Shown in pieces: positions 19,398 through 50,700 of a stretch of 63,263 bases of DNA; the stretch's first letter is position 1, and each line of letters begins with the position of its first letter. The translations under genes were made by a program, and so were the position numbers. Source of the DNA: a virus (Duplodnaviria; Caudoviricetes); IMG/VR virus record IMGVR_UViG_3300011334_000158, positions 1 through 63,263 of that record, one strand, 5' to 3'. The notes beneath the pieces are model-generated. The model had not been told where the DNA came from. It saw nothing but the letters and a program-made list of their open reading frames with translations, and made no database searches.

Positions 19398-20195
19398 TTA
19401 CTTATTTAATTTTTTTTGTAACATGGCTACTTGCTTCATGAGTTGCGCATTTTCTCGTTGGAATTGATCACGCGAAGTAGTAACGGCTTTTAAGTCTATC
19501 TCAAGTAAACGAATTTGTGCGCGCAAATCTTTAATAATTGATTGTGCTTTTTCTTTTTCAATATCATCAGAACTTGCGGCAAGTGCAACTGTTAGTTGAT
19601 CTTTTAAGTCTTCATTTTCTTTCTGTAAATTATCTGTTGCTGCTTTCTGCATCTCTGCATCTACTGCTGCTTTATCGAACGGCTCTTCTTGATATGCTTT
19701 GCTATCGGCTTTGGGCTTCATGGTCTGCTGCTTACCATCGCGGTGATACTTTGTATCTACCTTGGTCGCACTCATTTCTTTGCGAACCGTAGCAACTAAC
19801 CCGTGGCTTACATCGCAGATGCGCGCTATCTCTCTATCACTAAACTCTTGCCATTCAATATCATTCAACATCGTAGTGACTGCTTTGCGGCGATCCGCAG
19901 AATTCGGGCGGCGACCGTGCTTACTGTTAGCAGAAAAGCTAAATAGAATTGCATCCCGTAATGTTCCTTCTACTACCTTTGCATTGATATTGGGAGAGCC
20001 AGCCTTGCGATTAGCAAAGTATCTGTGAAATCCATCTGCCAAGAAATACTCTGCGCCGTCATAGAAAAGCGTGACCGGATCAAATACTGTTCCTTGTTTT
20101 AATAGGTCTGTGTACTCTGCTACCAGTTCTTGATCAATCTTCGCTCGTGCTTGAGTACCTGCGTCAATTACAATGTTATCTAAATTTATATTCAT
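19398..20195 (-). CDS. ParB/Srx-like nuclease domain + HTH + coiled coil
   Basis: YFLADGFHRY, SANSKHG, SDREIARICDVSH. Confidence 0.8.
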   Translation of the reverse strand: MNINLDNIVIDAGTQARAKIDQELVAEYTDLLKQGTVFDPVTLFYDGAEYFLADGFHRYFANRKAGSPNINAKVVEGTLRDAILFSFSANSKHGRRPNSADRRKAVTTMLNDIEWQEFSDREIARICDVSHGLVATVRKEMSATKVDTKYHRDGKQQTMKPKADSKAYQEEPFDKAAVDAEMQKAATDNLQKENEDLKDQLTVALAASSDDIEKEKAQSIIKDLRAQIRLLEIDLKAVTTSRDQFQRENAQLMKQVAMLQKKLNK

Positions 20196-20302
20196 TCTAT
20201 TTCCTCAAGTAAATATGCAACGCAAGCTGCAATTATTAACAACAAAGTACCCATGCCAATCATGATCCCGCCCAACAAAGTTAATAGTTCAAATGTCTCC
20301 AT
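20192..20302 (-). CDS. 36-aa membrane peptide (METFELLTLLGG...)
   Basis: Translated by hand; overlaps both neighbours. Confidence 0.5.
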   Translation of the reverse strand: METFELLTLLGGIMIGMGTLLLIIAACVAYLLEEIE

Positions 20303-21425
20303 GTTGATCTCCGTACATCGTGATTATGTTTCCATCGTACCCATCTAATGATTTGATAATGTGATCTGCAAAGTTATGAGCCAAGATGATTAGGTTGTCT
20401 GGCTTCTCATACCGCAGAACATCTCTTGCTACTACCTGCAACCCAGTGCCTGGCATCCACTTGCCCTCTTTAGCAGGCGTATCGTCTACGATGTATAGAT
20501 ACTTATCGCTTGCTTGTAGATCCAACGCATTCAGATATACACAACCCTTTGCTGCTGCTCCGAAGAACGCTACCGTGCCGTCCAAGTTCTCAATGATTTC
20601 CTTGTCTCTCTTAATCTTGTCGGCAACTCTGTCATTCCAACCCTGATAATCAAAATCAATTTCTTTTTCTACATACTTGGCGTAGTCAAACTTGTACCAA
20701 CTATCTTTATCTTTTCTTATGAGTAACCTCAGACTGCCGCCGTGAATGTAGTGCTCTTCTACATGCACCACTTCTAAGTGATACATGCTGAGGAGTTTGA
20801 TAAGCGGAGTCATCAACCAATAGAAATAATGCTCGTGATAAAACTGGTCGAACTGCAAAGTCTTGAGTGTGTTTAGTGTGTACGGAAACTCTAACAGCCA
20901 GATGCCGTCATCATGTAGATGTTTAACTATCGCGGATAAGAATTTATGTACGTCACTTGTATGTTGGAACACGTTAGTGCTAGTGATAATGTCTGCGGTA
21001 GGCAGATCCATGTCAGGACTGAAGTACCCCTCTACGTATTTGATGCCCGCAGATTCATTGTCTTCCCTCATGCTACTACTGGCGTCCACGTTGATAAGAT
21101 TCTGTATGCCCATCGTGCGGCGAAATGATTTCAGCAACGTCCCGTCATTACCACCTACATCAATCACCGTACCCCTGCGGCTGCCAACAAATAGCTCTGC
21201 CATGTCGTCACAATGTTTTACATACGGTATGTTGACACCCGACCTATACAGGTAGTGACCGTACAACTCATCCGGCGTTACGGTAGATTCTTCATCTAAG
21301 TTGATAAGCATATCGTCTGCCATCTCAGCTCGCAGGCGATACCTTTTTACAGATAGAGAATCTTCTTTCGTCTCACATAAATTGTTGACGAGTGGCTGCG
21401 TACCTAGATCGAGTAATGTCTTCAT
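20289..21425 (-). CDS. NDP-sugar C-methyltransferase (TylCIII/EryBIII/TcaB9-like)
   Basis: LDLGTQPLVN, VIDVGGNDGTLL, FDQFYHEH, HGGSLR, FGAAAKG, VDDTPAKEG, ILAHNF. Confidence 0.85.
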   Translation of the reverse strand: MKTLLDLGTQPLVNNLCETKEDSLSVKRYRLRAEMADDMLINLDEESTVTPDELYGHYLYRSGVNIPYVKHCDDMAELFVGSRRGTVIDVGGNDGTLLKSFRRTMGIQNLINVDASSSMREDNESAGIKYVEGYFSPDMDLPTADIITSTNVFQHTSDVHKFLSAIVKHLHDDGIWLLEFPYTLNTLKTLQFDQFYHEHYFYWLMTPLIKLLSMYHLEVVHVEEHYIHGGSLRLLIRKDKDSWYKFDYAKYVEKEIDFDYQGWNDRVADKIKRDKEIIENLDGTVAFFGAAAKGCVYLNALDLQASDKYLYIVDDTPAKEGKWMPGTGLQVVARDVLRYEKPDNLIILAHNFADHIIKSLDGYDGNIITMYGDQHGDI

Positions 21426-22543
21426 AGAAATATATATCGGTGAACGGGGCTAACGGTGGAATAACTTACATCATCACGGTTCCACATTACTGCGTTGATG
21501 AAGTTAGTAGATGGACAGGCAACCAACTCTGTCGCATTACACATCATGTAAAAATTATCATAGACAACCTGCGCATCTACGATTTGTTTCCAGTCATGGT
21601 AATAACCATTTTGTGTGCGCTTAGTTATGTTCTTAACTCCGGCGTCCATCTGCGCATACTTCTCTGCCAACGCCCATTCATCTGACAGCACTACCCGACT
21701 CTGCACCCTGCGCTTTAGATCAATCAGGTTTCTTTTCAGTAGATCCGTGGGTTGATGAATAGTCTCAACCATTAACTTATCCCCGCCGCGCAGATAGAAG
21801 ATGCCGTTGTTTAAATCAAAGTTGACTACCTTCTGCTGCCTGAACATGCACTTATAAATCTTTTGGTACATGTGTATTTTGAAAACCATGAACTCATTTA
21901 TTACGTTAATTCTTTGCTCATTCAAAATCTCGCTGCGCATCTTAGCAAAGTCAATCTCGTACTCAGACCTAACCTCATTCGTTGTTTCCCATACGTCACC
22001 AAATACATCTTCAAACTTAGGACTGTAAGCCCACCAAAAAAGGGTAGTGCTAACAAGTAACTTCTTGCCTGACCTGTGCGCTATCCAACTGGCGTTAATT
22101 AAGTTCTCTATGTTAGAAAAGAATCCGCTGTGCGGCGGCTTATACAAAAGATAGTCATCATAATTCTCAGAGAACTCCCTTTCTCCCATGGGCTTGCCCT
22201 GATAAAGCTCGTAAATGTTGTAGTCCACACCCCATAGATTCCATGAATGCTCCAACCCCATGCAGCCAGTCAGCTCCTGCCGTTCAAAGAAATTAGTTGG
22301 CAATACTTTGGGTAGGTACTTCTTGGTAAAGTTAAAATCCACCTTACCCCAAAAATATAGCCTGGCTACAAACAACGGCAGCCTGGTACTAAGCGGAAAG
22401 GTTGCTGCTATGCGCATGAACCTGCCTATAGTCTGCGGGCAGTCTCCGTCTATCTCTTGAGCCAATGCAACTACAAGCTCAGAGTAATACTTGTGAAACT
22501 CCAGTGATTCGTCTGGCGCTCTATATCTGTTGAACTGGATCAT
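21422..22543 (-). CDS. Putative fucosyltransferase-superfamily glycosyltransferase (GT11/GT23/NodZ-like)
   Basis: SGFFSN, YLRGGDK (motif I), VLSD (motif II), D..MM...ACPSTNF (motif III). Confidence 0.55.
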   Translation of the reverse strand: MIQFNRYRAPDESLEFHKYYSELVVALAQEIDGDCPQTIGRFMRIAATFPLSTRLPLFVARLYFWGKVDFNFTKKYLPKVLPTNFFERQELTGCMGLEHSWNLWGVDYNIYELYQGKPMGEREFSENYDDYLLYKPPHSGFFSNIENLINASWIAHRSGKKLLVSTTLFWWAYSPKFEDVFGDVWETTNEVRSEYEIDFAKMRSEILNEQRINVINEFMVFKIHMYQKIYKCMFRQQKVVNFDLNNGIFYLRGGDKLMVETIHQPTDLLKRNLIDLKRRVQSRVVLSDEWALAEKYAQMDAGVKNITKRTQNGYYHDWKQIVDAQVVYDNFYMMCNATELVACPSTNFINAVMWNRDDVSYSTVSPVHRYIFL

Positions 22544-23022
22544 GCGTTAACCCCTTCACGCCGATCACTTACGCGACGGGTGATGACCCGCTCCAAACGA
22601 TCAAGGATTTCTTCTGTTTCTGTGTCCAACAAATTTACTTGCTTCTTCCACTTCAGCAATGTGAGGTGCATGTCATGGAGTAACTGACCTTTCTGCTGGT
22701 CATCTGACAGAACATTAGCCGTTAAGCGATAGCCACCGCCCTCGTATTGATCAGTAGATAAACTGACGAACGCACGAATAGGAACGTCTGGCGCTTTCTC
22801 AATAGTCACTACGCACTTCTGGATAAGCTGCCTTGCCTGCATCTTACGATACGCTTCTGCGGCCTTGTCATCATCCCACTGAAAATGTTTATGAAGAATT
22901 GACTTAGGATTTCTAGCCTCATCCAGTACATCATCAACCATCAACAGACCGCCATTCTTGTTGGCAATCTTTTCCAATAGCTTGCGCTCTTCTGCTAGTG
23001 CTTCTGCTTTCATTACTTCCAT
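22540..23022 (-). CDS. 160-aa protein downstream of the pentamer array; candidate partner of the RAMP protein
   Basis: SD AAGGAG; NGGLL..DVLDEARNPKSILHKHFQWDD..AA..YR..QARQLI. Confidence 0.8.
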   Translation of the reverse strand: MEVMKAEALAEERKLLEKIANKNGGLLMVDDVLDEARNPKSILHKHFQWDDDKAAEAYRKMQARQLIQKCVVTIEKAPDVPIRAFVSLSTDQYEGGGYRLTANVLSDDQQKGQLLHDMHLTLLKWKKQVNLLDTETEEILDRLERVITRRVSDRREGVNA

Positions 23023-23040
23023 GTTGATCTCCTTTAAGTT

Positions 23041-23440
23041 TGCCTGCTATACCTTACCCCGCCTCACCGCACCATTCCACAACAAACCTCGCCATACCTG
23101 CCGCACCACTCCTAACGCCACCTTGCGCCGCCTAACCCCACCTGCCTTACCTCACCGTGCCCAACCTTATCCCGCCTCACCTGCCATCCATACCAAACGA
23201 TGCCCGAACACACCCCGCCCAGCCATGCCGTACCCCACCTGCCTTAACTCACCAAACCGCTCCTCGCTTTACCAGGCCATTCCCCGCCTGCCATAACGAA
23301 CCGCACCGTGCCCCGCCCAGCCGGAACTTGCCTGCCTTAACGAACCAATCCGCGCAGCGCCGCACCATACCCCAACAAACCTCGCCTGACCTGCCTTGCC
23401 CAACCGGGCCGGATCGCAACTCACCACGACGGGCCTGCCT
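23041..23440 (-). ncRNA. Array of 8 units of GGY-NN pentamers separated by GGCA; putative guide-RNA array
   Basis: Parsed by hand: GGCAGG delimiters at 23434, 23390, 23331, 23287, 23238, 23180, 23141, 23097 and AGCAGG at 23043; 71 pentamers, 50 exactly GGY-NN and the rest one mismatch away. Confidence 0.85.
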
Positions 23441-23443
23441 TAA

Positions 23444-24115
23444 TTACTTAATGCCGAATTTCTTTACGACTTCTTTTTCTTTGTCGTTAGGCACAATTTC
23501 AAACGTACCGAAACCACAGCCAGCCGAAGCCTTAGAGTCAGGACGTCCTGCCCCTATACCCACCTGCAACCCAACGCGGCTGACTAAGTTGTAGACATCT
23601 TGTGCCGTGAACTGATCCGAATCAAAACGTATACGCAAACGTGCTGCCCACTCGCGGTACATGGGACGGCTGCGGACATCAACCACGCCCGTAGCGTTGC
23701 GTGTATGAGCGGTATAGGTTTCGCTAGTGCCGTAGATACGGATAAGCGGAATGCCATCTTGTAAATCGAAGCCGTCAGCCACAACAAATGTTGATAGCTT
23801 GGCGAGTGTCATCTTGAAACCCACTAAACGACATGCACTGATCATACCGGCGCGGAAAGCAGCAGCGTTCATACCCTCCCAGTTTTCTTCCGAGCGGTAA
23901 CGTGCAGCCTGTGCTTCTTTGTCATAGTCCCTAGCATCACGAACCTTTTTGCTACCGGCAGACTTACCCTCTGCCATCTTAGCCATGAGTTCTGCCTTCT
24001 TGCTAAACCGTTCCACAACTAGCGGCGCGGTACCCTGTAGCAGAACATCAACCGCCTGAAAATTGGGTGCTGAAATAACTACCGATGTTTCTTTGACTTT
24101 CATATCCATCTTCAC
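23444..24115 (-). CDS. RAMP/Cas7-like RNA-binding protein (putative effector for the array)
   Basis: N-terminal strand VDVLLQGTAPLVV; MNAAAFRAGMISA helix (compare RAMP IPGSSLKG); C-terminal Gly-rich loop GLQVGIGAGRPDSKASAGCGFGTF. Confidence 0.7.
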   Translation of the reverse strand: MKMDMKVKETSVVISAPNFQAVDVLLQGTAPLVVERFSKKAELMAKMAEGKSAGSKKVRDARDYDKEAQAARYRSEENWEGMNAAAFRAGMISACRLVGFKMTLAKLSTFVVADGFDLQDGIPLIRIYGTSETYTAHTRNATGVVDVRSRPMYREWAARLRIRFDSDQFTAQDVYNLVSRVGLQVGIGAGRPDSKASAGCGFGTFEIVPNDKEKEVVKKFGIK

Positions 24116-24282
24116 TCTCCTTTTAATATAGCCGTAGCTATAGCTTCAGCAGGGTTATCCTGCCAATCCCTGTAATAGTGGCAAATGATTGCCGCTCTCT
24201 CCCTTTCCCGCTCTACTACCGACTGCTCTAGCCGATCCGCAAACTCCCGCAGATGTTCTTTGATCCACTCTCCTTCTTTCAT
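24112..24282 (-). CDS. 56-aa hypothetical protein (MKEGEWIKEH...ERERAAIIC)
   Basis: Translated by hand; SD AAGGAGG; GTGA overlap with the RAMP gene start. Confidence 0.65.
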   Translation of the reverse strand: MKEGEWIKEHLREFADRLEQSVVERERERAAIICHYYRDWQDNPAEAIATAILKGE

Positions 24283-24303
24283 ATCACCCCTCCTTTAAGG
24301 CAA

Positions 24304-24332
24304 ACATTACTACCAGAATTATTCCATGTCAA
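24304..24332 (-). promoter_or_regulatory. Sigma70 promoter of the RAMP-array-replication operon
   Basis: TTGACA-17-TAATGT. Confidence 0.75.
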
Positions 24333-25078: not shown

Positions 25079-25107
25079 ATAATAGGACAAGTCCCAGTTT
25101 TTTGCAA
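25079..25107 (-). promoter_or_regulatory. Sigma70 promoter
   Basis: TTGCAA-17-TATTAT. Confidence 0.65.
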
Positions 25108-25113
25108 GCGTAC

Positions 25114-25146
25114 AAAAAAAGAACCCCGCCGAAGGGTAAGCGGGGC
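25114..25146 (-). terminator. Rho-independent terminator
   Basis: ccccgc-10nt-gcgggg followed by ttcttttttt on the minus strand. Confidence 0.55.
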
Positions 25147-25268
25147 GAAAGACCGTCCCTACGGCCTCATGAAAAGGTACTAGCCCACCGACAAGGAGAT
25201 CACAGCATAGGGGAGTAAAGGTCGGCGGGCTTTCCCAATACAACAATACCACAACGCTACTTAAAAAC

Positions 25269-25320
25269 AAATGTTGTCAAGTGGTTACTGGTCGATTTAC
25301 CAGTAACCGTTTGATAACAT
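25269..25320. promoter_or_regulatory. 50-bp imperfect palindrome, copy 2
   Basis: atgttgtcaa-gt-ggttactggt-cgattt-accagtaacc-gt-ttgataacat. Confidence 0.75.
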
Positions 25321-25350
25321 ACAATACTTATAATCATGTGCAAATACCTG

Positions 25351-25379
25351 TTGACCTGTCCTAAATGTAGGTTTATTAT
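25351..25379 (+). promoter_or_regulatory. Sigma70 promoter of the rightward operon
   Basis: TTGACC-17-TATTAT. Confidence 0.7.
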
Positions 25380-25404
25380 AGCACTACATCTAGGGAGGGT
25401 GTAT

Positions 25405-27546: not shown

Positions 27547-28419
27547 ATGAAACTTACCAATAAATTTAATCTGCCGGACACGTTTGTTAACGTTATAAAA
27601 CGGCCTCAATACAGTAAAGGTAGCAGCGAGATCAGCGTTACAGAGATCCTGTCACCGCCGCAGTTAGTTCTACTCCGCCGTCAACACACAGATGATATTG
27701 AGCAAGACGCTGCTGATATGGTCTGGTCGTTGTTTGGATCCGCTGTCCACAATATATTAGAGCATGGCAAAGACGATAACCACATCGTAGAAGAGCGCCT
27801 GTTTACTACGTTTGAGGGATGGTCTATTTCTGGTGCTATAGATTTACAGAAATTGATAGATGGCAAGGTACTTATTGCCGACTATAAAGTGACCTCCGCC
27901 TGGGCAGTTCAGCAGGAGAAGCAAGAGTGGATAGATCAACTTAACCTTTACGCATGGCTAGTCGAGCGCGTGAAGGGTGACACAGTATCTGGCATACAAA
28001 TCATTGGCATTGTTCGTGACTGGTCGCGCAGGGAAGCAGCTCTGAAAGATACCTACCCGCAGGCACCTATCGTCACATTAGATATACCGCTTTGGTCGTT
28101 TGAAGACAGAGAAGAGTTTGTGCGCCGCCGACTTACTATGCACAACGAGGCTAACTTTGCGGCAGTCTCCGGCGATATGCCTGAGTGTACGTCAGAGGAA
28201 ATGTGGGAGAAGAAGACAACGTATGCCGTCATGAAAGAAGGTGGCAAGCGGGCGAAGAAGGTATTCGATGTTAAGGATGATGCGATAACATTTTTAGTGC
28301 AGCAAAAGGATGTGCATTACGTAGAAACCAGAGAGGGCGGCAGGACAAGATGCGAAAGCTTTTGCCAGGTTGCACCTTTCTGTAAGCAGAATCAGAAATA
28401 TCTTAAGGAGAAGGCATGA
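27547..28419 (+). CDS. PD-(D/E)XK exonuclease (Cas4/RecB-like), recombination
   Basis: GSAVH, EERL, SGAIDL, DYK, QLNLY; C-terminal RC..FC....FC. Confidence 0.8.
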   Translation: MKLTNKFNLPDTFVNVIKRPQYSKGSSEISVTEILSPPQLVLLRRQHTDDIEQDAADMVWSLFGSAVHNILEHGKDDNHIVEERLFTTFEGWSISGAIDLQKLIDGKVLIADYKVTSAWAVQQEKQEWIDQLNLYAWLVERVKGDTVSGIQIIGIVRDWSRREAALKDTYPQAPIVTLDIPLWSFEDREEFVRRRLTMHNEANFAAVSGDMPECTSEEMWEKKTTYAVMKEGGKRAKKVFDVKDDAITFLVQQKDVHYVETREGGRTRCESFCQVAPFCKQNQKYLKEKA

Positions 28420-29120
28420 AAGCAATAGCATCGGCGCTAGTAAAAGCGCAGCGGGAATTTGGACCGGCTTTAAAGTCCAGCACCAACCCGCATTTCCGCA
28501 GCAAGTATGCGGATCTGTCGGCGTGTATCGAGGCGGTGATTACTGCGCTAAACAACAACGGCATCTATCTCATGCAACTGACAGATGAGCATGATGGTGG
28601 TGTGAAGGTATCTACTACTTTTATTCACGAGTCAGGTGAGCAACTGTCGGCTGGCAGTTTGTTCATGCCAGCGATCAAGCATGACGCGCAGGGCTACGGG
28701 AGTGCTTTGAGCTATGCAAGAAGGTATTCGCTGATGGCAGCCTGCTCCCTTGCAACGGAGGATGACGATGGTAACCAAGCAACAAAGACTGCGCCTCCAC
28801 AGGCGATACCAAAAGCTGCACCGAAACAGCTTGAAGCACAACATAAATTACCTAGCAAGATTGAAGGTAAAGATGCTCAGTGGCAAATCAAGGTATCAGC
28901 AGATCCTGGAACTGATTGGAATGATTGGCTTGCAGTCGTGGTGGAGCAAACAGTTTTCGCGTTAGACATGGCTCAGAACAAAGAAGATGTGATGACTGTC
29001 TGGCGCACGAACGCAAACATCTACAAGATTATTGAGCAGCGTGACAGCGTGGCTTATCCAGAACTGACAAAAACATTTAAAACTTACAAGGAATCTTTTG
29101 ATGAACAAGTATCCAAATAG
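28416..29120 (+). CDS. erf: ERF-family ssDNA annealing protein
   Basis: NPHFRSKYADL, HESGE, QGYGSALSYARRYSL, EDDDG. Confidence 0.9.
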   Translation: MKAIASALVKAQREFGPALKSSTNPHFRSKYADLSACIEAVITALNNNGIYLMQLTDEHDGGVKVSTTFIHESGEQLSAGSLFMPAIKHDAQGYGSALSYARRYSLMAACSLATEDDDGNQATKTAPPQAIPKAAPKQLEAQHKLPSKIEGKDAQWQIKVSADPGTDWNDWLAVVVEQTVFALDMAQNKEDVMTVWRTNANIYKIIEQRDSVAYPELTKTFKTYKESFDEQVSK

Positions 29121-31318: not shown

Positions 31319-31509
31319 GTCGGAAGCTGTTTGAAGCAGTAAACAAGGAAGCGGAGGAACTGGATCTTATATATGCACCGGACTCCGCTGCTTGGGATTT
31401 GATGCGTAGCCTTGCAAAAGTAATAGAGAAACAAGAACGAGAAAGATGCGCGGTTATTTGCGAAAAAATGGGATTGCCGGAAGCAGCGGCAAAGATAAGG
31501 GGAGAATAG
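31315..31509 (+). CDS. Hypothetical protein (ERERCA..C)
   Basis: Coupled ORF. Confidence 0.6.
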   Translation: MSRKLFEAVNKEAEELDLIYAPDSAAWDLMRSLAKVIEKQERERCAVICEKMGLPEAAAKIRGE

Positions 31510-32456
31510 TGAAGGTCGTAATCCAAAACCACTACGAGTTCATCACAAAAGATGGATACTTGTTTAAGAATGAGAACAGCGACGTAGGCCACAACCTGCT
31601 ACGTTCGTGGGTGCAGCTCTATCAAATCGGCATGGACATGGGCATCCAGTTCTACACGCCGGATCAGGTAGATCTATACACCGTTGACTTGGCTATCTTT
31701 ATGGACAGGCCAAAAGTCGAGCCAGATATTCCAGGGGCCAGCAAGATATTGATCTTGTACGAGCCAGAGATAGTTATTCCAGACAACTGGGATGTGGCTT
31801 ATCACGACAGATTCGATAAGGTACTGACTTGGGATGACAAGATCGTCAACCGTCAGAACTATATCAAGCACAACTTCACAGTAGACTGGACTGACAGGCT
31901 GCCATGTAGCGTCACCGAGTCCGAGTTTAACGACCGCAAGCTTCTGTGCATGATGCAGACAGCTAAGAACAGCAATCATCCCAATAGCTTATATCCCCGC
32001 CGGATAGAGGCTATCCAATGGTTCCAGAAGAACGCTATGTTTGAGTTTGATCTCTGGGGCAGGGGCTGGCCTGTTCAGCAATTCTACTCATGCAGAGGAC
32101 TGGCACAGAATAAGTTAACTACGTGCAGCAAGTACAAGTTTGCACTGACGTTTGAGAACTGCGACAACGCTACAGGCTACATCTCAGAGAAGATACTGGA
32201 TGCCTTCATGGCAGGTACTGTCCCTATTTACTGGGGCGCACCTAACATTACCAGCCACATTCCGGCTGAATGCTTTATAGACATGCGGGATTTTGAAAAC
32301 TACGAAGACTTGTACAAGTATTTAAAGGGCGTGAGTTATCAGCGGTACTGCGAATATTTAGAAGCCATAGACAGTTTCATCCGGTCGGACAAGGCCAACC
32401 AGTTTGACAGCAATGAAGAGGTTAAGGATCTCCTCCGATTGATAGAGAGTTATTGA
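31509..32456 (+). CDS. GT10 (alpha-1,3-fucosyltransferase-like) glycosyltransferase
   Basis: FDLWGRGW; KYKFALTFEN...GYISEKILDAF.AGTVPIYWGAPNI. Confidence 0.85.
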   Translation: MKVVIQNHYEFITKDGYLFKNENSDVGHNLLRSWVQLYQIGMDMGIQFYTPDQVDLYTVDLAIFMDRPKVEPDIPGASKILILYEPEIVIPDNWDVAYHDRFDKVLTWDDKIVNRQNYIKHNFTVDWTDRLPCSVTESEFNDRKLLCMMQTAKNSNHPNSLYPRRIEAIQWFQKNAMFEFDLWGRGWPVQQFYSCRGLAQNKLTTCSKYKFALTFENCDNATGYISEKILDAFMAGTVPIYWGAPNITSHIPAECFIDMRDFENYEDLYKYLKGVSYQRYCEYLEAIDSFIRSDKANQFDSNEEVKDLLRLIESY

Positions 32457-32457
32457 T

Positions 32458-32700
32458 ATGAAACCCAGGTTACTTACTGAAACATTTGTATGCACCATGT
32501 GCAAAAAAGAAAAGCCTTATCAAGAATTTAAAAAGAACAGGGCTAGGTTTTCTGGTTATGCAAGTTATTGCCTTCAATGTAATCGGGAACATACCGCAAA
32601 AAAAAGAGCAAAAAATATTCAAGCAAAACCAATTCATACAAAAGACGCCATGAATAATTTGTTTTCATTATGGAATTCTTCTAAAGGAAATTACGGATGA
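32458..32700 (+). CDS. Small Zn-finger protein
   Basis: CTMC..CLQC. Confidence 0.6.
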   Translation: MKPRLLTETFVCTMCKKEKPYQEFKKNRARFSGYASYCLQCNREHTAKKRAKNIQAKPIHTKDAMNNLFSLWNSSKGNYG

Positions 32701-33428
32701 CTTTATCTGTAGCAGTAGTTACATCTACCCGTGGCAGGGAAACAATTAAACAGGCTCATGAATCAGTCATGAACCAAACATACCCAGCTACCCATTATGT
32801 TTTTGCGCATGGCAAAGACTGTTGGAATGAAGTGGAAGACCATTTAGACGCTATGCAGGAGATTGAAAATGTACAAATGGTTTATCTTCCTCGCGCTAAC
32901 GGCAGCGGTGGTCTTGCAATGGCTCCCGTTTTTGCTATGGCTCCATACGCTATAAAAGAAGACATCATCTGCTACCTTGATGACGACAACTGGTACGAGC
33001 CAGACCACGTAGAAACAATGGTGAAGATGATAGAGGAGCATGATCTTGGCTGGGCATACAGCCTTAGAAAGATAGTAGACAACGAAGGTAACTTTATTTG
33101 TGACGATAACTGTGAGTCTCTGGGCTGCGTAAAAAATACGTCAGGCCACTATCTTGTGGATAACTCCTGCTATGTAGTTAGGTCAGAGGTTGCCCGCAAG
33201 TACAGCCATGCTTGGTATGTCCCATTTGTATCCGACCGTTCGTTCCAAGCGGCGCTGATGGTGGCAAAGATTAAAACAGGAACTACAGGAAAGCATACCG
33301 TCAACTACCGCCTGTCAACAGATGGCAGCGGCAGCATGACATCAGAAAAATTCATTGGTAATAACGAGTGGATGAAACAAAACCGTCCGGATTTTTCTTG
33401 GACAAAAAAACAAATCTTTAACTTCTAG
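32697..33428 (+). CDS. GT2-family glycosyltransferase
   Basis: SVMNQTY; YLDDDNWYEPDH DxD motif. Confidence 0.8.
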   Translation: MTLSVAVVTSTRGRETIKQAHESVMNQTYPATHYVFAHGKDCWNEVEDHLDAMQEIENVQMVYLPRANGSGGLAMAPVFAMAPYAIKEDIICYLDDDNWYEPDHVETMVKMIEEHDLGWAYSLRKIVDNEGNFICDDNCESLGCVKNTSGHYLVDNSCYVVRSEVARKYSHAWYVPFVSDRSFQAALMVAKIKTGTTGKHTVNYRLSTDGSGSMTSEKFIGNNEWMKQNRPDFSWTKKQIFNF

Positions 33429-33437
33429 GAGAAATGT

Positions 33438-34208
33438 ATGGCTAAATTATTCGTTGCTACACCAATGTACGGTGGCCTTTGCTATGGCTACTACGCACAA
33501 TCACTGTTGTCTTTGCAGCACGCCATGCGCGATATGCGTATCGATATAGCGTGTAGCTTTTTATTCAACGAGTCTTTAATTCAACGGGCGCGTAATTCCC
33601 TGGCGCACTCTTTTTTGAAGACTGACTTTACGCATCTAATGTTTATCGATGCCGATATCCACTTCAATCCCAAAGATGTGCTGCCCATGCTTTTGGCAGA
33701 CAAGCCAATCATCTGCGGTGTTTATCCCAAGAAAGAAATTAATTGGGGACAGGTTCACAACGCAGCAGTAAACGGCGTTCCAGCAAACGAGTTAAGCAAA
33801 TACAGCGGTTCTTTCGTGGTTAACTTGGTTGGCTACAAAGAAGAAGAGCGAGTAGATACCGGCTCCCCTATCGAAATTTGGAATGGTGGCACTGGTTTTA
33901 TGTTAATCAAGCGCGAAGTCTTTGAGCAGCTACGAGACAAGGTGCCTAGCTACATCAACGACACCCATGACCTTGGTGGCAACATAGGTCACGAAAGAAT
34001 CTCTGAGTTCTTTGCTACCAGTATTGAGCCATTGGGAGAGCGCCTTCTCTCCGAGGACTATCACTTCTGCAAGATATGGCGCGAGAAATGTGGCGGATCC
34101 GTATGGGCTGCACCGTGGGCACAGCTATCCCATATAGGTACACACATGTTCAACGGTATCTTGACTGAAAAACCAACCCACATAGAACCCAAACCACAGG
34201 AAGTCTAA
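33438..34208 (+). CDS. GT-A fold glycosyltransferase-like phage protein
   Basis: ATPMYGG, ESLIQRARN, FIDADI, GTGFMLIKR, SEDYHFC, HIG. Confidence 0.75.
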   Translation: MAKLFVATPMYGGLCYGYYAQSLLSLQHAMRDMRIDIACSFLFNESLIQRARNSLAHSFLKTDFTHLMFIDADIHFNPKDVLPMLLADKPIICGVYPKKEINWGQVHNAAVNGVPANELSKYSGSFVVNLVGYKEEERVDTGSPIEIWNGGTGFMLIKREVFEQLRDKVPSYINDTHDLGGNIGHERISEFFATSIEPLGERLLSEDYHFCKIWREKCGGSVWAAPWAQLSHIGTHMFNGILTEKPTHIEPKPQEV

Positions 34209-35440
34209 TGTTTATTCTTGGCAAAAATTACATCCATGCTTCTGGACAAGTAATCGGGGAGCGTGAAAAGCAGTTGATGCACGAAGCGGTGGATAAAGGC
34301 TGGCTTACTGCTGGTCCTTTTAACCGCCAGTTTGAGGACACGCTCACCCGCTGGATTGGTGCCAAAGCTATCCGCACGGTTAACTCTGGGAGCTCTGCCA
34401 ATCTGGTTGCCTTCTCTGCCCTGACTTCCCCGAAGCTGGGGAACAGGGCTATTAAGAAAGGTGATGAGGTTATCAGCGTGGCCTGCGGGTTTCCCACTAC
34501 CATTAATCCAATTATTCAATTTGGTGCGGTGCCCGTGTTCTTGGATGTAAATACAACCTTAAACATTGATATCAACGACATTGAATCTTCAATTACAGAT
34601 AAGACCAAAGCTATCTTTATTGCTCACACGCTAGGTAATCCATTCAACGTGGATGAAATAGTCTCGTTGGCAAAGAAGCATAACCTCTGGCTGATTGAAG
34701 ATTGCTGCGATGCCTTGGGCGCGGAATGGCGTGGGCAGAAGGTCGGTACGTTTGGCGACTTAGCTACCCTGTCTTTCTTCCCAGCTCACCATATCACGAT
34801 GGGCGAAGGTGGCGCGGTCATCATCAACAACACTAGCCTGACCAGACTGGTCGAGTCTTTCCGTGACTGGGGTAGAGATTGCTGGTGCGAGCCAGGCAAA
34901 GACAATACTTGTAAGCAGCGGTTCTGCCACAAGTTTGACGGCCTGCCAGAAGGCTATGACCACAAGTATGTGTTTACTCACGTAGGCTACAACTTAAAGA
35001 TCACTGAGATGCAGGCGGCTTGCGGCGTGGCACAGTTGGAAAAGCTAGACTTGTTCATACAAAAGCGCAAAGAGAACTATCAGTATTTGAAAGAACGCCT
35101 GTCTAAGTATGAGCAATTCTGGCTACCGACAGTCTATCCAGACGCTAACCCTAGCTGGTTTGGGTTTCCTATTACCTTGTCTACTACGACTAAATTCACG
35201 CGCAGTGAGTTGGTTCAGTACCTTGAGAAGCACATGATTGGATGCCGCCTAGTCTTTGCTGGCAACGCAACCAAGCAGCCGTTCTTGAAAGATCAGAACT
35301 ACCGCATTCATGGCTCGTTGGAACAAACAGACTTGGTGATGCACAACACATTCTGGGTAGGTGTGCAGCCCGCTCTCACCCGCGAGATGTTGACCTACGT
35401 AGCAGACACCTTTGATAAATTTATGAAGGAATTTTTATGA
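34208..35440 (+). CDS. rfbH: CDP-4-keto-6-deoxy-D-glucose 3-dehydrase E1 (PMP/[2Fe-2S])
   Basis: VNSGSSANL, AHTLGNPF, EDCCD, SFFPAHHITMGEGG (His in place of the Schiff-base Lys), RDCWC.....NTC. Confidence 0.88.
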   Translation: MFILGKNYIHASGQVIGEREKQLMHEAVDKGWLTAGPFNRQFEDTLTRWIGAKAIRTVNSGSSANLVAFSALTSPKLGNRAIKKGDEVISVACGFPTTINPIIQFGAVPVFLDVNTTLNIDINDIESSITDKTKAIFIAHTLGNPFNVDEIVSLAKKHNLWLIEDCCDALGAEWRGQKVGTFGDLATLSFFPAHHITMGEGGAVIINNTSLTRLVESFRDWGRDCWCEPGKDNTCKQRFCHKFDGLPEGYDHKYVFTHVGYNLKITEMQAACGVAQLEKLDLFIQKRKENYQYLKERLSKYEQFWLPTVYPDANPSWFGFPITLSTTTKFTRSELVQYLEKHMIGCRLVFAGNATKQPFLKDQNYRIHGSLEQTDLVMHNTFWVGVQPALTREMLTYVADTFDKFMKEFL

Positions 35441-37221
35441 AGGCATCTGATTACATCTGCTCTAGGATTAAGGATCTGACAGGAACAGATACCGTATTCC
35501 TGCTATCCGGCGGGGGCATGATGCACCTATTGGATAGCGTTGGCAAAACAGAAGGACTGAACTACATGCACTTGCATCATGAGCAGTCTTGCGGGTTTGC
35601 TGCGTATGCTTACGGCAGGGCTATCAACTCTGTCGGCGTAGCTTTCGTTACCTCTGGACCTGGTGGAACTAATGCCATCACAGCGGTAGCCTCTGCCTTT
35701 GCCGACAGCGTTCCACTGCTAATTATCTCTGGCAACATTACTCAGACTTTTTCTGCCCATGGCTTGGGGCTGCGGATACGTGGCTTCCAAGAGCTGGACA
35801 TCATAGAAGTAGTTAAGCCGATTACGAAGTATGCCAAGTTCATCAACAGACCAGAAGATGTTAGGCACGAGCTGGAAAAGGCTGTGTTCATGGCTAAGGA
35901 CGGGCGGCCTGGACCCGTATGGCTAGACATCCCGCTAGACGTACAGTGTGCAGATATAGTGCCAGACTCTCTGTACCCATTTAATGGATTTAGTTCTAAC
36001 GCTGCACCGAAAGATGAGCTAGTCGATTCTATTCTGGAGAAGTTACGTAGCGCCGAGCGCCCGTTGATTTTGTTTGGCAACGGTGTGTATACCAGCGGCG
36101 CTAAGTGGGCAGCTAGAGACTTGGCTCAGATGATGAACATCCCAGTACAGACTACATGGGGCGCAGTAGATCTGATCCCTGAGAGCTACGACAATTACTT
36201 TGGTAGGTCTAACTCTTTTGGGCCACGATACCCCAACATCATTATCCAGAATGCAGATTACATCCTGTCTCTGGGTGCAAGACTAGGCGTTCAACATACC
36301 AGCCACAACATAGAAACATTTGCCAGAGAGTCATTCATAGACATGGTTGACCTTGATCCGGCAGAAGCACACAAGCCAGGATTAAAGGTAGGCAGGTTCT
36401 CACGAGTATGTGCCAATAAATTAATTAACAAACTGTTAGAAACAGAGCAGAAGATACAAGCGCCTAAACGATGGCTGACTTATTGCGGGGCGGTCAAGAA
36501 CAGATTCCCCGTGGCTCCTAAATATGATGAAGTTAAGAACAACAAATATGTTGATCCTTATTATTTCTATGCAGAGTTAGGCCGTCAATTACCAGAAAAT
36601 GCTGTATTAACTCCTACCGGATCAGGCCAAGCATTTATCGTCGGGCATCAGGTATTGGAGATAAAAGAATCAACAAGGATGTTTGGCGCTAAGAATCTAG
36701 CCATGATGGGTTCCTGTTTACCGTCAGCTATCGGGGCATACATGGCTACTAGAAAACCTATCATCTGCGTGACCGGCGATGGCGGCATCCAACTTAACAT
36801 CCAAGAGTTGGCAATCATCCAGCACCACAGACTGCCTATAAAAATCTTTGTCTTTAATAACGGTGGGTATCACGCTATCCGTATCACACAGGAAAAGTAT
36901 TTCAACAGCAGATACGTTGGCTCGACAGAAGATACAGGTGTACATATTCCAAGCTTTGAGAAGTTAGCGTTTGCTTACGATATTAAACATTCTGTAATTA
37001 ATAAAAACATTTGGGTTACACCTACGATTAGAAACTGTTTATCCAGCATGGAGCCAGAGATTATTGAGGTGATGCTTGACCCGCACAAACCACTAACTCC
37101 AAGTATTGGTTCATACATGCGCGAAGATGGATCGATGTCTTCGAGACCGCTAGAGGATATGGCTCCCCTGCTAGACAGAGAGGAGCTGCGCGGCATGATG
37201 TATATAGACTTGGTTGAATAA
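35437..37221 (+). CDS. ThDP-dependent acetolactate-synthase-like enzyme, YerE-like
   Basis: HHEQ, TSGPGGTN, GRPGPVWLDIPLD, GDGG..NN; adjacent to rfbH. Confidence 0.8.
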   Translation: MKASDYICSRIKDLTGTDTVFLLSGGGMMHLLDSVGKTEGLNYMHLHHEQSCGFAAYAYGRAINSVGVAFVTSGPGGTNAITAVASAFADSVPLLIISGNITQTFSAHGLGLRIRGFQELDIIEVVKPITKYAKFINRPEDVRHELEKAVFMAKDGRPGPVWLDIPLDVQCADIVPDSLYPFNGFSSNAAPKDELVDSILEKLRSAERPLILFGNGVYTSGAKWAARDLAQMMNIPVQTTWGAVDLIPESYDNYFGRSNSFGPRYPNIIIQNADYILSLGARLGVQHTSHNIETFARESFIDMVDLDPAEAHKPGLKVGRFSRVCANKLINKLLETEQKIQAPKRWLTYCGAVKNRFPVAPKYDEVKNNKYVDPYYFYAELGRQLPENAVLTPTGSGQAFIVGHQVLEIKESTRMFGAKNLAMMGSCLPSAIGAYMATRKPIICVTGDGGIQLNIQELAIIQHHRLPIKIFVFNNGGYHAIRITQEKYFNSRYVGSTEDTGVHIPSFEKLAFAYDIKHSVINKNIWVTPTIRNCLSSMEPEIIEVMLDPHKPLTPSIGSYMREDGSMSSRPLEDMAPLLDREELRGMMYIDLVE

Positions 37222-37229
37222 GGACAACT

Positions 37230-38141
37230 ATGAAAATTGCCATACTAGGGGCTACCAGTCAGATAGCTAAAGATTTGATTCTGTCGTTTAGTGACGAACA
37301 TCATCTGTCTTTATTCTCCCGCAAGATTAGTGACGTCACAGTTTGGATGCTAGAAAACAACCTGCGGAACTTTACGTCTAACAGTTACTTTGAGTTTAAA
37401 AATCTCAAGGATGTAGATGTCATTATTAACTTTGTTGGCGCAGGTAGCCCAGAACTAATAATGAAATTGGGTGAGAGGATATTTGATATCACCGAGTCAT
37501 TCGACAAGATGGCAATGGATTACGTAGAAAGAAACCATGACTGTAAATACATCTTTATCTCAAGCGGTGCTGTCTTTGGAGACAATTTCCACACACCGGC
37601 GGACGCAGAAAAAAACTCCGTATTTCCTATCAATAACCTTCAGCCACACCACTACTACGGTTATGCCAAGGCCATGGCTGAAGTGCGGCACAGGATATCC
37701 CCCCGCACCATCTTTGACCTTCGCGTGTTCAGTTACTTCAGCCCTACGGTAAACATAAACAAACGGTTCATGCTTAACGATATGATCCGCGCTATCAAAG
37801 ATAAGTCTGTATTTAAGATAGACCGAACGCAAGTAATCAGGGATTACATTGGCCCGCTAGATTTCTATCAGATGATTAACGTACTTATGCGTCAAGACAA
37901 AATGAATACTGCTGTAGATATATACAGCCGCCAGCCAATCTCCAAAGATAGCCTAGTAAGCGCCATGGTAGAACGCTATGGGTTGCAGTATGAAACTATT
38001 AACTCACCGATAGGTATACATTCTACAGGCATGAAACCTAAATACTATTCTGTAAATACGGCTGCTTACGCCTTGGGATATAAGCCAACCTTATCTTCCC
38101 TTGAGAATATTTATTTGGGCGTTGATAAAATACTTAAATGA
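37230..38141 (+). CDS. NAD-dependent epimerase/reductase (extended SDR)
   Basis: ILGATSQIA, FISSGAV, YGYAK (YxxxK), RDYI. Confidence 0.85.
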   Translation: MKIAILGATSQIAKDLILSFSDEHHLSLFSRKISDVTVWMLENNLRNFTSNSYFEFKNLKDVDVIINFVGAGSPELIMKLGERIFDITESFDKMAMDYVERNHDCKYIFISSGAVFGDNFHTPADAEKNSVFPINNLQPHHYYGYAKAMAEVRHRISPRTIFDLRVFSYFSPTVNINKRFMLNDMIRAIKDKSVFKIDRTQVIRDYIGPLDFYQMINVLMRQDKMNTAVDIYSRQPISKDSLVSAMVERYGLQYETINSPIGIHSTGMKPKYYSVNTAAYALGYKPTLSSLENIYLGVDKILK

Positions 38142-47789: not shown

Positions 47790-50700
47790 GCGGGCAACAT
47801 ACGATCTGCACCACTCTTAACAGCTACCTTTCCCTGACCAACTGTTTTATTGCGAGCCTGCTGAATTCTATTCATCATCGCATACAGCTTACGGGCACCA
47901 GCATCTGTAGATCCATTTCCAATCTCAGAGACTATGCGAGCTGGAATTACAAACTCACCATCAGCAAGACGGGCAGGCTGCTTGTTGCCAATAGAAGCAG
48001 GAATAGAATCGCTAACTCCATCTCCAGGTCCCTTCAATAAACGACCGCCATCTGAATAATCACCTAGATGATATCCGCCATTAGCATAACCACCTTCAGC
48101 CATATTTCTAGGTTGAGACTGTGCAGAAGAAAGATAAACCTGCTGTGCCGGAGTAAGCGACGCTATGTTTGTGTGCGTGCCAGGAATAATTGGTTGAGCC
48201 TGTGCATATCCTAAAAGAGCCTGCTCTTCAGGCGTAAGCAAAGAACCATAAGACTGCGCGCTTGGCGGTGCAATAGACTGCAAACTAACCATGCCTGGAT
48301 TTGTATTGGCAAATGGCGATGCCTGAGCCACCGCTTGGTTAGGTGTAAAGTTCATGCCGCTTTGTATTGACGGCGTTGCCCTTGCCATCTGCTCATAAAG
48401 ACCAGTCAATCCAAGTTGTTTATTCACATCCTGATATGGCATAGCTCCTTCAATAGAAGCCTGTGGATTAGGCGTAACTTGTGGAGTATATAAGCCAGGA
48501 GAGGATGGCGTAAATGATGAATATTGTCTTCCATAATCTTCCATTTGCTGGCGAGTCATTGTCACCGGAGGAGGAAGAATATCGTTACGACCAACCGTTG
48601 TTACAACAGAAGGAGGCAAAGGAGTTAAAGGCGACGTCTGGCTAGTAAATAAATTAGTAACTTGTTGAGAAGTTAAATTTTGTATTTGAGTAGTGGTTAA
48701 TGCTCCAATACCCGTTGTGTTAATTGCTTGTACTTGATTGGTCGCTAATGTCGAAAGGCCAGTAGTAGCAATTGTTTGCACTTGAGTAGTATCTAATCCT
48801 CCGATACCAGTTGTGCTGATTGCCTGTATTTGATCAGTAGCTAATGTTCCAATACCTGTTGTAGCAATAACTGCTATTTGGTTGCTAGTTAATTGATTGA
48901 TTACTTGCGAAGTTAAATTCTGTACCTGATTTGTGTTTAATGTTGAAATATTAGTCGTAGTAATAGCTTGCAATTGATTGCTATTCAATTGATTAATTAC
49001 TTGCGAGCTTAAATTTTGTACTTGATTAGTAGTTAGTGCTGCAATATTGGTTGTACTAATTGCGTTTACTTGACTACTGTTCAATCCATTAATAACTTGC
49101 GAGCTTAAATTCTGTATCTGCGTAGAGGCCAATGCAGCAATAGCAGATGTTAAGTTTTTAGGATCAGAAACCAAACGTCCAATATATTCGTTGGATGCTT
49201 TCAATTCTGTTTTTAAGTCATTTATAGAAATCTTTTTAGATAAATAATTTTGCAATTCAGCAGCAGTTGGTTTTCTTTGTAAGATATCGCTGTACGTTGA
49301 AGAGATATCATTTGGATTTGCTCCAATTGGAGCTGGAGTATTTTCTTTTGTAAATTGTTCTTTATTTAATTTATTCAAATAATCAACATAAGTATTGGTT
49401 GAAGTAAGAGCATCGCGCAACTTTCCAAAATTAGCGTAATTAGCTTTTTTGTAGTTAGCCAACTCACCAGCAGTCATCTCACGACCCCAGTAGTATTTAG
49501 CTTGCGCCTGCAATTCTTTTTCGGTAAACGGATCTTTTGTGCCGCGAGCTATAGATATATCAGGCGACTTATTAACCTTATTTGCCAAATCTTGAATAGT
49601 TCCTTTGGTACCAACATACGCATCCAACTCATCTTTGGTGGCTTTGCGACCAACAACTTCTTGGAAAACTTGTTGTACATCTTCTGGCTCGTATGGTTTG
49701 GTAGTTTTACTATCCCATCCAGTAAGAGCATTTACTTTACCGTATTCAAGTTTTTGATATTCTGGCAGTTTTTGTTCTGGCGCCCATGTCCCATTAGGTT
49801 GAATTACATACTTTACTGAACCTGATGAAGTGGGAACAGTAACAGTTTGTGGATTGTTACTAGTGCTGCCTAAACCACCGGTAGTTGTTGATGTTGTAGT
49901 AGTAGTAGCATTGCTTGTAGCTTTAGGAATAGCTGAAATGCCGCGAGTACCAATACTTTCACCGCGAGCAGTTGCTGTAGAGAAATCTTGTAATGCTTTT
50001 CCTTGTGCGTCGGTTGCTTGGGTAACTTCATCCTGTTGTTTTTGTAAAGCTGATTTAGCAAGATTTGTTAAACCTGAATATTGATTTGCGGCAATCGTGA
50101 AGTTGCCTTTACTATCCATCAAGCCAGCATCAGTAAGAGCTTGTTTCAATGCAACAACATCCTTAGATTGGCGACTTGCTTCTGCGTTCCACCCTGAAGT
50201 TAATCCTGACAAACCACCAGTAATGTCTTTCCCTGTGGAATCTTTACCTGTGTATTCAGCAAGTTTGGCAAGCGCAGGAGCAATTTTATCTGCGTACAAA
50301 GTGCTTTCTGCTTGCTGAGCATTTTCCGCCGATACTTTATTCATAAAAGCAGCAGCGTAATCTGTAGCTTTTAAAGAAGTATTATTAACGTAATCAGTTA
50401 ATAATTTATTTACTGCGTTGTATTCATTTGTTTGATTTGTTTTTTGTGCCGTAGCTTTTTTTGGGTCAGATAAATCAACATCTGTTTTAGGTATTTTTTG
50501 ATAAACAACATTAAGTCCATCATTAAGATTTTTTTGTTGATCTTTAACTAAGCCTTGTAAATAGTTATAAGCCTCTTCATACCCTGGCTTTACAGCCTTG
50601 GTTTTTGGATCAATATATGTTTTTAATCTACTTTCAACACTTTCTAATTGTTCTTTTTGTTGCTTTAAAGTTGGAGCATAAGTTGACACTGTATTTTCAG

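Follow-up and report, generated by a model that had tools for sequence, protein, structure and literature searches.

A staggered-array VIPR locus in a phage genome and its predicted targets in resident genetic elements

Introduction

What does a phage gain from a stand-alone RAMP gene that is followed by some 400 nt of GGY-NN pentamers (NN, two variable nucleotides) and a small partner gene? Such a locus, with all of its features on the minus strand, lies in IMG/VR record IMGVR_UViG_3300011334_000158, a caudoviral genome of 63,263 nt that was analysed whole and is called the window herein. An initial annotation read it as a candidate RNA-guided effector and likened it to VIPR, which is indeed a published system: VIPR with staggered vrRNA arrays was described in 2026 (10.64898/2026.04.26.720920), in a paper whose text neither predicts targets for this kind of array nor reports experiments on it.

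Our sequence comparisons confirm the locus as VIPR with a staggered array, every testable VIPR feature having been found there except three contact residues. Both VIPR and its action against satellites have been published; what is new here is the target set, along with signs of guide evolution. Taken as a whole, the locus is very probably the VIPR with which a lytic-looking freshwater phage silences genes of resident elements.

Results

The array, about 390–400 nt long, G-rich and non-coding, lies between the RAMP gene (vipr) and the partner gene (vap). It holds 32 GGY pairs at a lag of 5 nt, against 3.9 ± 1.9 (maximum 11) in 2000 dinucleotide shuffles, and elsewhere in the genome no 300-nt segment has more than four such pairs. 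Junctions of the form GGCA/GG split it into eight in-register units of 44, 59, 44, 49, 58, 39, 44 and 54 nt, seven of which have a length of 4 modulo 5, unit 5 being one base short; the same length class takes in 531 of the 558 units parsed from the window and 66 relatives. Across 353 units the scaffold letters are G (0.90), G (0.87) and Y (0.88), and NN is variable. A pentamer tract adjoins vipr in 65 of the 66 related IMG/VR loci, the association that the initial annotation had proposed looking for among homologues; that annotation saw the periodicity correctly and missed both the register shift at GGCA/GG and the 1-nt skip in the target. Three loci are rearranged, with the array upstream of vipr (L043, L065 and L066; vap is upstream too in L043 and L066), and in L061 the array is reduced to a stub.

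The units abut, with no 3' tail between them. Folding of the array is no better than that of shuffles (z 0.04), Rfam gives 0 matches, and A predominates in the last NN before a junction (66% at the first of the two bases). No CRISPR tandem array and no cas1, cas2, cas5 or cas6 was found by a tandem-repeat search and PHROG scans of 63 + 7 open reading frames (ORFs), in keeping with the initial claim that CRISPR repeats and core cas genes are absent; a PD-(D/E)XK exonuclease 3 kb from the locus gave a weak Cas-associated match. In one metatranscriptome, contigs of a related strain span vipr, array and vap, with DNA carry-over possible.

The 223-aa vipr ORF starts at GTG, and most close homologues have 221 aa, which fits an ATG two codons downstream. 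The motifs from which a RAMP fold had been proposed (GTAPL, AAAFRAG and GIGAGR..SAGCGFG) are confirmed in the protein, and the fold itself was borne out by modelling, structural matches and homology. An AlphaFold2 model built with 88 sequences reached a pLDDT of 90; with it, Foldseek returned 39 matches at E ≤ 1e-3, headed by Csm, Cmr, Cas7-type and type VII RAMP chains at TM-scores near 0.4, from a library older than the Vipr structures. The sole PDB sequence match is Vipr of phage SUSP1 (36pp_D; E 7.7e-4 with the single sequence, 5.3e-7 with a profile), and hhalign to the homologue of Felixounavirus HK3 gave a full-length alignment (174 columns, probability 95.7, E 1e-8). The G-loop glycines are invariant across the 88 Vipr sequences, and R138 and R179 of SUSP1 are retained as R150 (86/88) and R191 (88/88). 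Pfam and NCBIfam models do not recognise Vipr, whose family runs to 2170 clusters at 50% identity, with homologues in a cyanophage, mycobacteriophages and Gordonia phages; the closest Felixounavirus homologues are ~24% identical to the window protein.

The partner gene is present in 65 of the 66 related loci, the single miss being a truncated contig. Vap is homologous to gp46 of mycobacteriophage Brocalys (E 7e-20) and could not be aligned with the SUSP1-type Vap1 of HK3 (probability 0.9). Brocalys (L069:1620–1850) carries the same GGCA/GG staggered array upstream of its vipr (gp45), with gp46 as the vap homologue. Pfam and NCBIfam models do not recognise Vap either. Foldseek found nothing at E ≤ 1e-3, its weak rows being winged-helix DNA-binding domains and none a nuclease; VIA-align gave generic helical-hairpin matches only, and an Atlas search returned unnamed viral clusters. 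Conserved H, D and R residues were noted in the protein.

The guides were decoded by the published 1-nt-skip rule, in which NN is kept and one wildcard stands between dinucleotides (Table 1). Four of them, units 1, 2, 5 and 7, have firm targets; both strands are used, and in all four it is the wobble position of the codon that is passed over. Exact 16-base matches of unit 1 in IMG/VR number at least 80, 72 of 80 being antisense in the motif CxxHGGASTG, with the domain confirmed by NF041373. For unit 2 there are at least 120 exact 20-base metagenome matches, and all 80 of those fetched run sense in polymerase motif A (PF00476); in 79 of these 80, the upstream dinucleotide, which lies outside the search pattern, is the one found as a 5' extension of the guides of L005 and L006. 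No match to unit 2 was present in 48 related records, and no exact 18-base match in IMG/VR. For unit 7 the exact 16-base matches number at least 120, and 74 of the 80 fetched lie in the GYGKGYVA motif of a Sak4-like gene.

Unit 5 was at one point considered to match a capsid motif; this was rejected, as it reads antisense to integrase. Twenty of its 25 IMG/VR matches are antisense to the motif KMRTPHIVPL of integrases that we take to be P4-type, and 13 of the 25 agree at 4 further bases outside the search pattern. In its 20-base form the guide has at least 120 exact matches in GTDB, of which 76 of the 80 fetched read MKMRTPHIVP, when chance would give ~1 in 596 Gb (two strands, even base use). 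Among 401 genomes, a set centred on Burkholderiaceae as a guess at the host family, and into which two genomes had been taken because they contain a match, unit 5 has 35 matches and its reversed control 1. The motifs targeted in the integrase and in the polymerase have catalytic roles.

The other guides are less clear. Unit 4 probably targets one Sak4-like subfamily: the largest cluster, 22 of the 80 fetched from 92 matches, is phrog_124/PF13479, and the other 58 are mixed. Unit 3 may be antisense to the AVPHGFRS box of tyrosine integrases, an assignment that is weak, with integrases making up 1 of 13 IMG/VR and 2 of 18 genome matches (18 matches versus 8 for the reversed control). Unit 8 had no local target match, and no collection scan was made for it; its 5' part matches a polymerase guide of L063 at 28 of 30 nt and its 3' part the start of unit 6 at 14 of 15, and it appears to be a recombinant of a polymerase-type guide and unit 6. 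Within the window, the best self matches of all eight units cover 0.68–0.79 of NN, so that there is no self target at ≥80% NN, and no Sak4, integrase, HGGxSTG gene or target polymerase was found there.

The skip rule and the targets were tested independently with guides of related phages, which had played no part in picking the target loci. Across 458 target loci, and with E-values that are rough binomial estimates, 18 of 188 outside guides (14 of 116 families) matched at E<0.01 with a skip of 1; the same 188 guides gave 0 with a skip of 0, 0 with a skip of 2 and 1 in reversed order. Of the 14 significant families, 5 land on integrases, 7 on Sak4 genes or their neighbours, 1 on an HGGxSTG gene and 1, probably by chance, on non-coding AT-rich DNA. 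Beside polymerase genes, outside guides agree with integrase motifs at 22/22 and 23/24 positions and with an HGGxSTG gene at 19/20 and, on the opposite strand, 16/16. The initial proposal that one subunit would bind each GGY-NN step, with NN read against the target, is borne out by the SUSP1 literature and by this skip-1 test, and the decoded targets point to the effector against competing elements that it had envisaged; no support was found for the host-gene targets that it had also suggested.

Against 1.6 Mb of related VIPR phages, 270 guides reached E<0.01 once with a skip of 1 and once with a skip of 0, which suggests that the relatives are mostly not targets. The skip-1 match is of an L007 guide (22/24 bases, wobble skipping) to a ParB-like gene of a related VIPR phage (L020:3503–3537).

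The arrays also carry signs of guide evolution. Five relatives with 96–99% Vipr identity share 2, 1, 0, 0 and 1 units identical to those of the window, in changed order, and the last array unit differs in other samples. In a comparison of 93 closely similar unit pairs, the difference relative to diversity is 0.06 for NN and 0.21–0.25 for the scaffold, about four times lower for NN, a pattern that indicates purifying selection on the NN positions. Variants of unit 2 in relatives track natural alleles of polymerase motif A. Switches between the six-fold codons of Leu, Arg and Ser are the sole synonymous escape from wobble skipping; they make up 10 of 61 single changes, with 6–10% expected (p 0.003–0.09), and their enrichment is only suggestive.

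The polymerase matched by unit 2 belongs to a recurrent block. Among loci of ≥6 kb, a 200-aa partner lies upstream in 29 of 29, a small gene downstream in 24 of 29, and a tyrosine or serine recombinase is present in 20 of 29. An HGG-type gene occurs in 8 of 80 polymerase loci, and a tRNA gene nearby in 4 of the 10 checked. The block is ~5.5 kb in L393 and L377, where it is flanked by host genes; no att repeats were found around either (2/2 tested). The islands, which at times hold one or two HGG-type genes, are L393:3412–8896, L377:3427–8963, L750:9518–13538 and L412. From their gene content they look like a satellite family, presumably dependent on a helper. A similarity search with the target polymerase returned only distant family-A matches, and the gene occurs in only 2 of the 401 genomes of the guessed host family.

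Records with the Sak4 target are in part proviruses (5 of 10 checked), and a tyrosine integrase was found in 3 of the 5 searched. In the targeted proviruses an AAA_24 (Sak4-like) gene is followed by DUF669, and an L004 guide matches the DUF669 gene. In the literature we found nothing on the HGGxSTG motif or on CHEAP/PolA-integrase satellites, and no polymerase islands or Sak4 as VIPR targets; the supplementary data of the VIPR papers may hold such targets.

Table 1 Features of the VIPR locus, with positions in the window.
Feature	Position	Strand	Reading
Promoter-like site	24304..24332	minus	Perfect -35, 17-nt spacer, weak -10; putative function
ORF56, 56 aa	24112..24282	minus	Passenger, not a core VIPR gene
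vipr, stand-alone RAMP, 221–223 aa	23444..24115	minus	Assigned by fold and homology to SUSP1 Vipr
Staggered vrRNA array, 8 units	23045..23443	minus	Each unit (GGY-NN)n + GGCA; 1-nt register shift per junction
Unit 1	23392..23435	minus	Antisense to HGGxSTG-domain genes (terminase-small-subunit-like)
Unit 2	23333..23391	minus	Sense, motif A of family-A DNA polymerase of small integrative elements
Unit 3	23289..23332	minus	Antisense to tyrosine-integrase AVPHGFRS box; probable but weak
Unit 4	23240..23288	minus	Probably sense to Sak4-like/AAA_24 gene, one subfamily
Unit 5	23182..23239	minus	Antisense to tyrosine-integrase motif MKMRTPHIVP (presumed P4-type)
Unit 6	23143..23181	minus	Target not found; longer L004 version gives 10 mixed matches
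Unit 7	23099..23142	minus	Sense to GYGKGYVA motif, second Sak4-like subfamily
Unit 8	23045..23098	minus	No target; looks chimeric
vap, 160-aa partner gene with Shine-Dalgarno sequence	22540..23022	minus	Predicted DNA-binding; 65/66 related loci; phrog_15946

Upstream of vipr, the TTGACA-17-TAATGT promoter of the initial annotation stands only in part. The -35 element TTGACA (24332–24327) is perfect and the spacer is of 17 nt; TAATGT (24309–24304) agrees with TATAAT at only 3 of 6 positions, and a consensus scan found 0 promoter-like sites. The 56-aa ORF, which had been counted as part of the locus, occurs in only 6 of the 66 related loci and matches no Pfam, PHROG or NCBIfam family at cut-off. 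Downstream, the vap stop overlaps the start of a 373-aa ORF without family (20289–22543, minus strand), after which come a C-methyltransferase-like gene, a ParB-like gene (19398–20195), a helicase and a primase; these may share the vap transcript.

The ends of the record have 127 identical bases in common. The window encodes terminase, portal, capsid, primase, helicase and an Erf-like annealing protein, a PHROG scan of its 63 ORFs found no integrase, and its GC content is ~0.45. Sequencing runs with window matches are riverine or freshwater metagenomes, and the phage looks like a lytic one of fresh water. Its recombination system pairs the Erf-like protein with the PD-(D/E)XK exonuclease (27547–29117, plus strand), so that Sak4-aimed guides spare it. 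At 25100–25400 the GC skew changes sign between divergent gene blocks, with hairpins and a further TTGAC-type element, which makes this stretch a candidate for an origin or a control region. Amid unknown genes at 31446–38138 (plus strand) lie those of an aminotransferase and a nucleotide-sugar epimerase, possibly for sugar or DNA modification. Coding tandem repeats of 48/96-nt period in a 1522-aa ORF (48679–49120) and proline-rich coding repeats of 15/24/39 nt (2845–2987) are unrelated to VIPR.

Discussion

We propose that a single operon transcript would run through vipr, array and vap, and that the array would yield eight guides; their bounds at the GGCA/GG register shift are visible in the sequence, and cutting there is presumed. 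Vipr would coat each guide with one subunit per pentamer, hiding GGY and leaving NN to pair with double-stranded DNA, every third base of which would be skipped. This coating and gapped pairing, shown in print for SUSP1, are transferred to the window locus because of the homology and the skip test. Probably with the help of Vap, the complex would next prevent transcription of those genes without which resident elements could not wake in the course of infection: the integrases, the HGGxSTG gene and polymerase of the islands and, in temperate phages, the Sak4/DUF669 recombination module. We favour silencing over cutting because of the SUSP1 precedent and because Vap gave no nuclease signal; the phage would presumably benefit. 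According to the first SUSP1 report, that VIPR forms a filament on its guide and a gapped R-loop and brings about silencing (10.64898/2026.04.26.720927), and the second describes how it immobilises a satellite via its recombinase, the excision block needing Vap1 (10.64898/2026.10.15.759431).

Several observations weigh against this proposal. Three RNA-contact residues of SUSP1 Vipr are not kept: opposite H17, D177 and W178 the window protein has E35, A189 and G190 in the alignment. Units 6 and 8 are without a target, the matches of unit 3 are close to what chance would give, and those of unit 4 are mixed in 58 of 80 cases; unit-1 matches fall mostly on low-GC contigs (~0.35), versus ~0.45 for the phage. 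As many as 102 of the 116 outside guide families match none of the searched targets at E<0.01; as the loci searched had been picked with guides of the window, the share of all guides aimed in this way is not deducible from them. The target motifs are conserved across many unrelated organisms. RNA was seen only as related-strain contigs, and the promoter is weak.

It could be argued that the array is a low-complexity repeat and that its 'targets' are random codon-like matches in huge databases. Short patterns do match mixed genes (12 of 13 unrelated for unit 3, 58 of 80 for unit 4), one skip-0 control match reached E 1.4e-3, and one of the 14 significant families fell on non-coding AT-rich DNA. 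However, only a skip of 1 is enriched, across several searches; about one match was expected for the 20-base unit-5 pattern and at least 120 were found, and purifying selection acts on the NN positions. The outside-guide test, the integrase matches in islands and the 401-genome control largely refute the chance reading, to which we give next to no credence. Granted VIPR and these targets, the array might still act uncut, with filaments on one long RNA, each ended by the GGCA/GG register break. There is no Cas6, ribozyme or structured tail here (Rfam 0; folding z 0.04), and confirmation by small-RNA sequencing is listed only for the ribozyme and single-guide types (10.64898/2026.04.26.720920), but the legend to fig. 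S18 of the same paper names 'individual processed vrRNAs' with 1-nt overlaps, and the A-rich last NN before a junction (66% A) is what a recognition site might look like. We regard an uncut array as unlikely, though a serious contender.

A different route of action, in which Vap is an unrecognised nuclease, the complex forms a replication roadblock or the guides bind mRNA rather than silencing transcription, seems improbable to us. In its favour, Vap shows no sequence relationship to Vap1 of SUSP1, and H, D and R residues are conserved in it; most integrase guides run antisense, an orientation that would let them pair with mRNA, and SUSP1 Vipr is described as able to hold an RNA target (10.64898/2026.04.26.720927). 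Yet the guides to polymerase and Sak4 run sense, and both strands of HGGxSTG genes are matched, which points to DNA, and the weak fold matches of Vap are winged-helix domains, none of them a nuclease and none significant.

Guide-directed transcriptional silencing of resident elements, the reading that we prefer, leads to a more speculative idea, which we put forward while leaning slightly against it: the integrase/polymerase islands of ~5–6 kb, some of them with an HGGxSTG gene for packaging, would be undescribed satellites parasitising these phages, and arrays would adapt without Cas1-Cas2, by unit recombination and by point changes that track target alleles, including Leu/Arg/Ser codon switches. 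If true, 'auxiliary' CHEAP-like polymerases would act as satellite replicases. The eight natural guides, four of them with firm motif targets, make processing without Cas6, tail or ribozyme directly testable, and the locus does the same for the role of a non-Vap1 partner; cultured Brocalys-type mycobacteriophages of M. smegmatis offer a ready experimental model. The few units common to close relatives are material on how vrRNAs are gained and updated. Reading guides backwards is also a discovery tool, pointing here to polymerase-bearing islands and Sak4/DUF669 modules as the phage's adversaries.

For two of these adversaries there are published counterparts. The unit-2 target polymerase may be a CHEAP, judged only by its size and motif-B leucine: like cluster 15 in the available part of the source it is an accessory polymerase of ~590 aa with leucine at the motif B Phe/Tyr position (by eye), but CHEAPs are described there as cellular auxiliary enzymes, whereas the unit-2 targets lie in integrase-bearing islands (PMC10201439). 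The targeted proviruses carry the same AAA_24-DUF669 gene pair as Healer, which is described as a phage DNA-repair module of DUF669 and a Sak4-like AAA protein acting against CRISPR (PMC13687109); here, in contrast, the pair is a predicted target and lies outside the VIPR locus.

In CRISPR systems, Cas7 forms the backbone on the guide RNA, Cas6 processes the transcript and Cas1-Cas2 acquires new spacers. The window locus resembles the Cas7/Csm3 backbone of Class 1 systems in its RAMP fold with a G-loop and in its predicted filament on guide RNA, but has no cas1, cas2, cas6 or CRISPR repeats and would read its target in gapped 5-nt rather than contiguous 6-nt steps.

Among VIPR systems, SUSP1 type II, which acts against F5 satellites, is a close point of comparison (10.64898/2026.04.26.720927; 10.64898/2026.10.15.759431). 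Both are found in a lytic or lytic-looking phage and have guides at recombinase catalytic-motif codons, and the SUSP1 arginines R138 and R179 have their counterparts in R150 and R191. The window locus differs in its lack of a structured 3' tail, in its unrelated Vap, in an array placed between vipr and vap, and in a predicted target range that takes in HGGxSTG genes, a family-A polymerase and Sak4/DUF669 modules. With neither a structured 3' tail nor Vap1, it is, on its gene and array content, not VIPR type II. It agrees instead with the published staggered-array VIPR: a stand-alone RAMP with one vap in a phage, GGY/NN pentamers, a 1-nt guide overlap, a 1-nt wobble skip, the use of both strands and no self target, the difference being 9–16 full repeats per unit there versus 7–11 here (10.64898/2026.04.26.720920).

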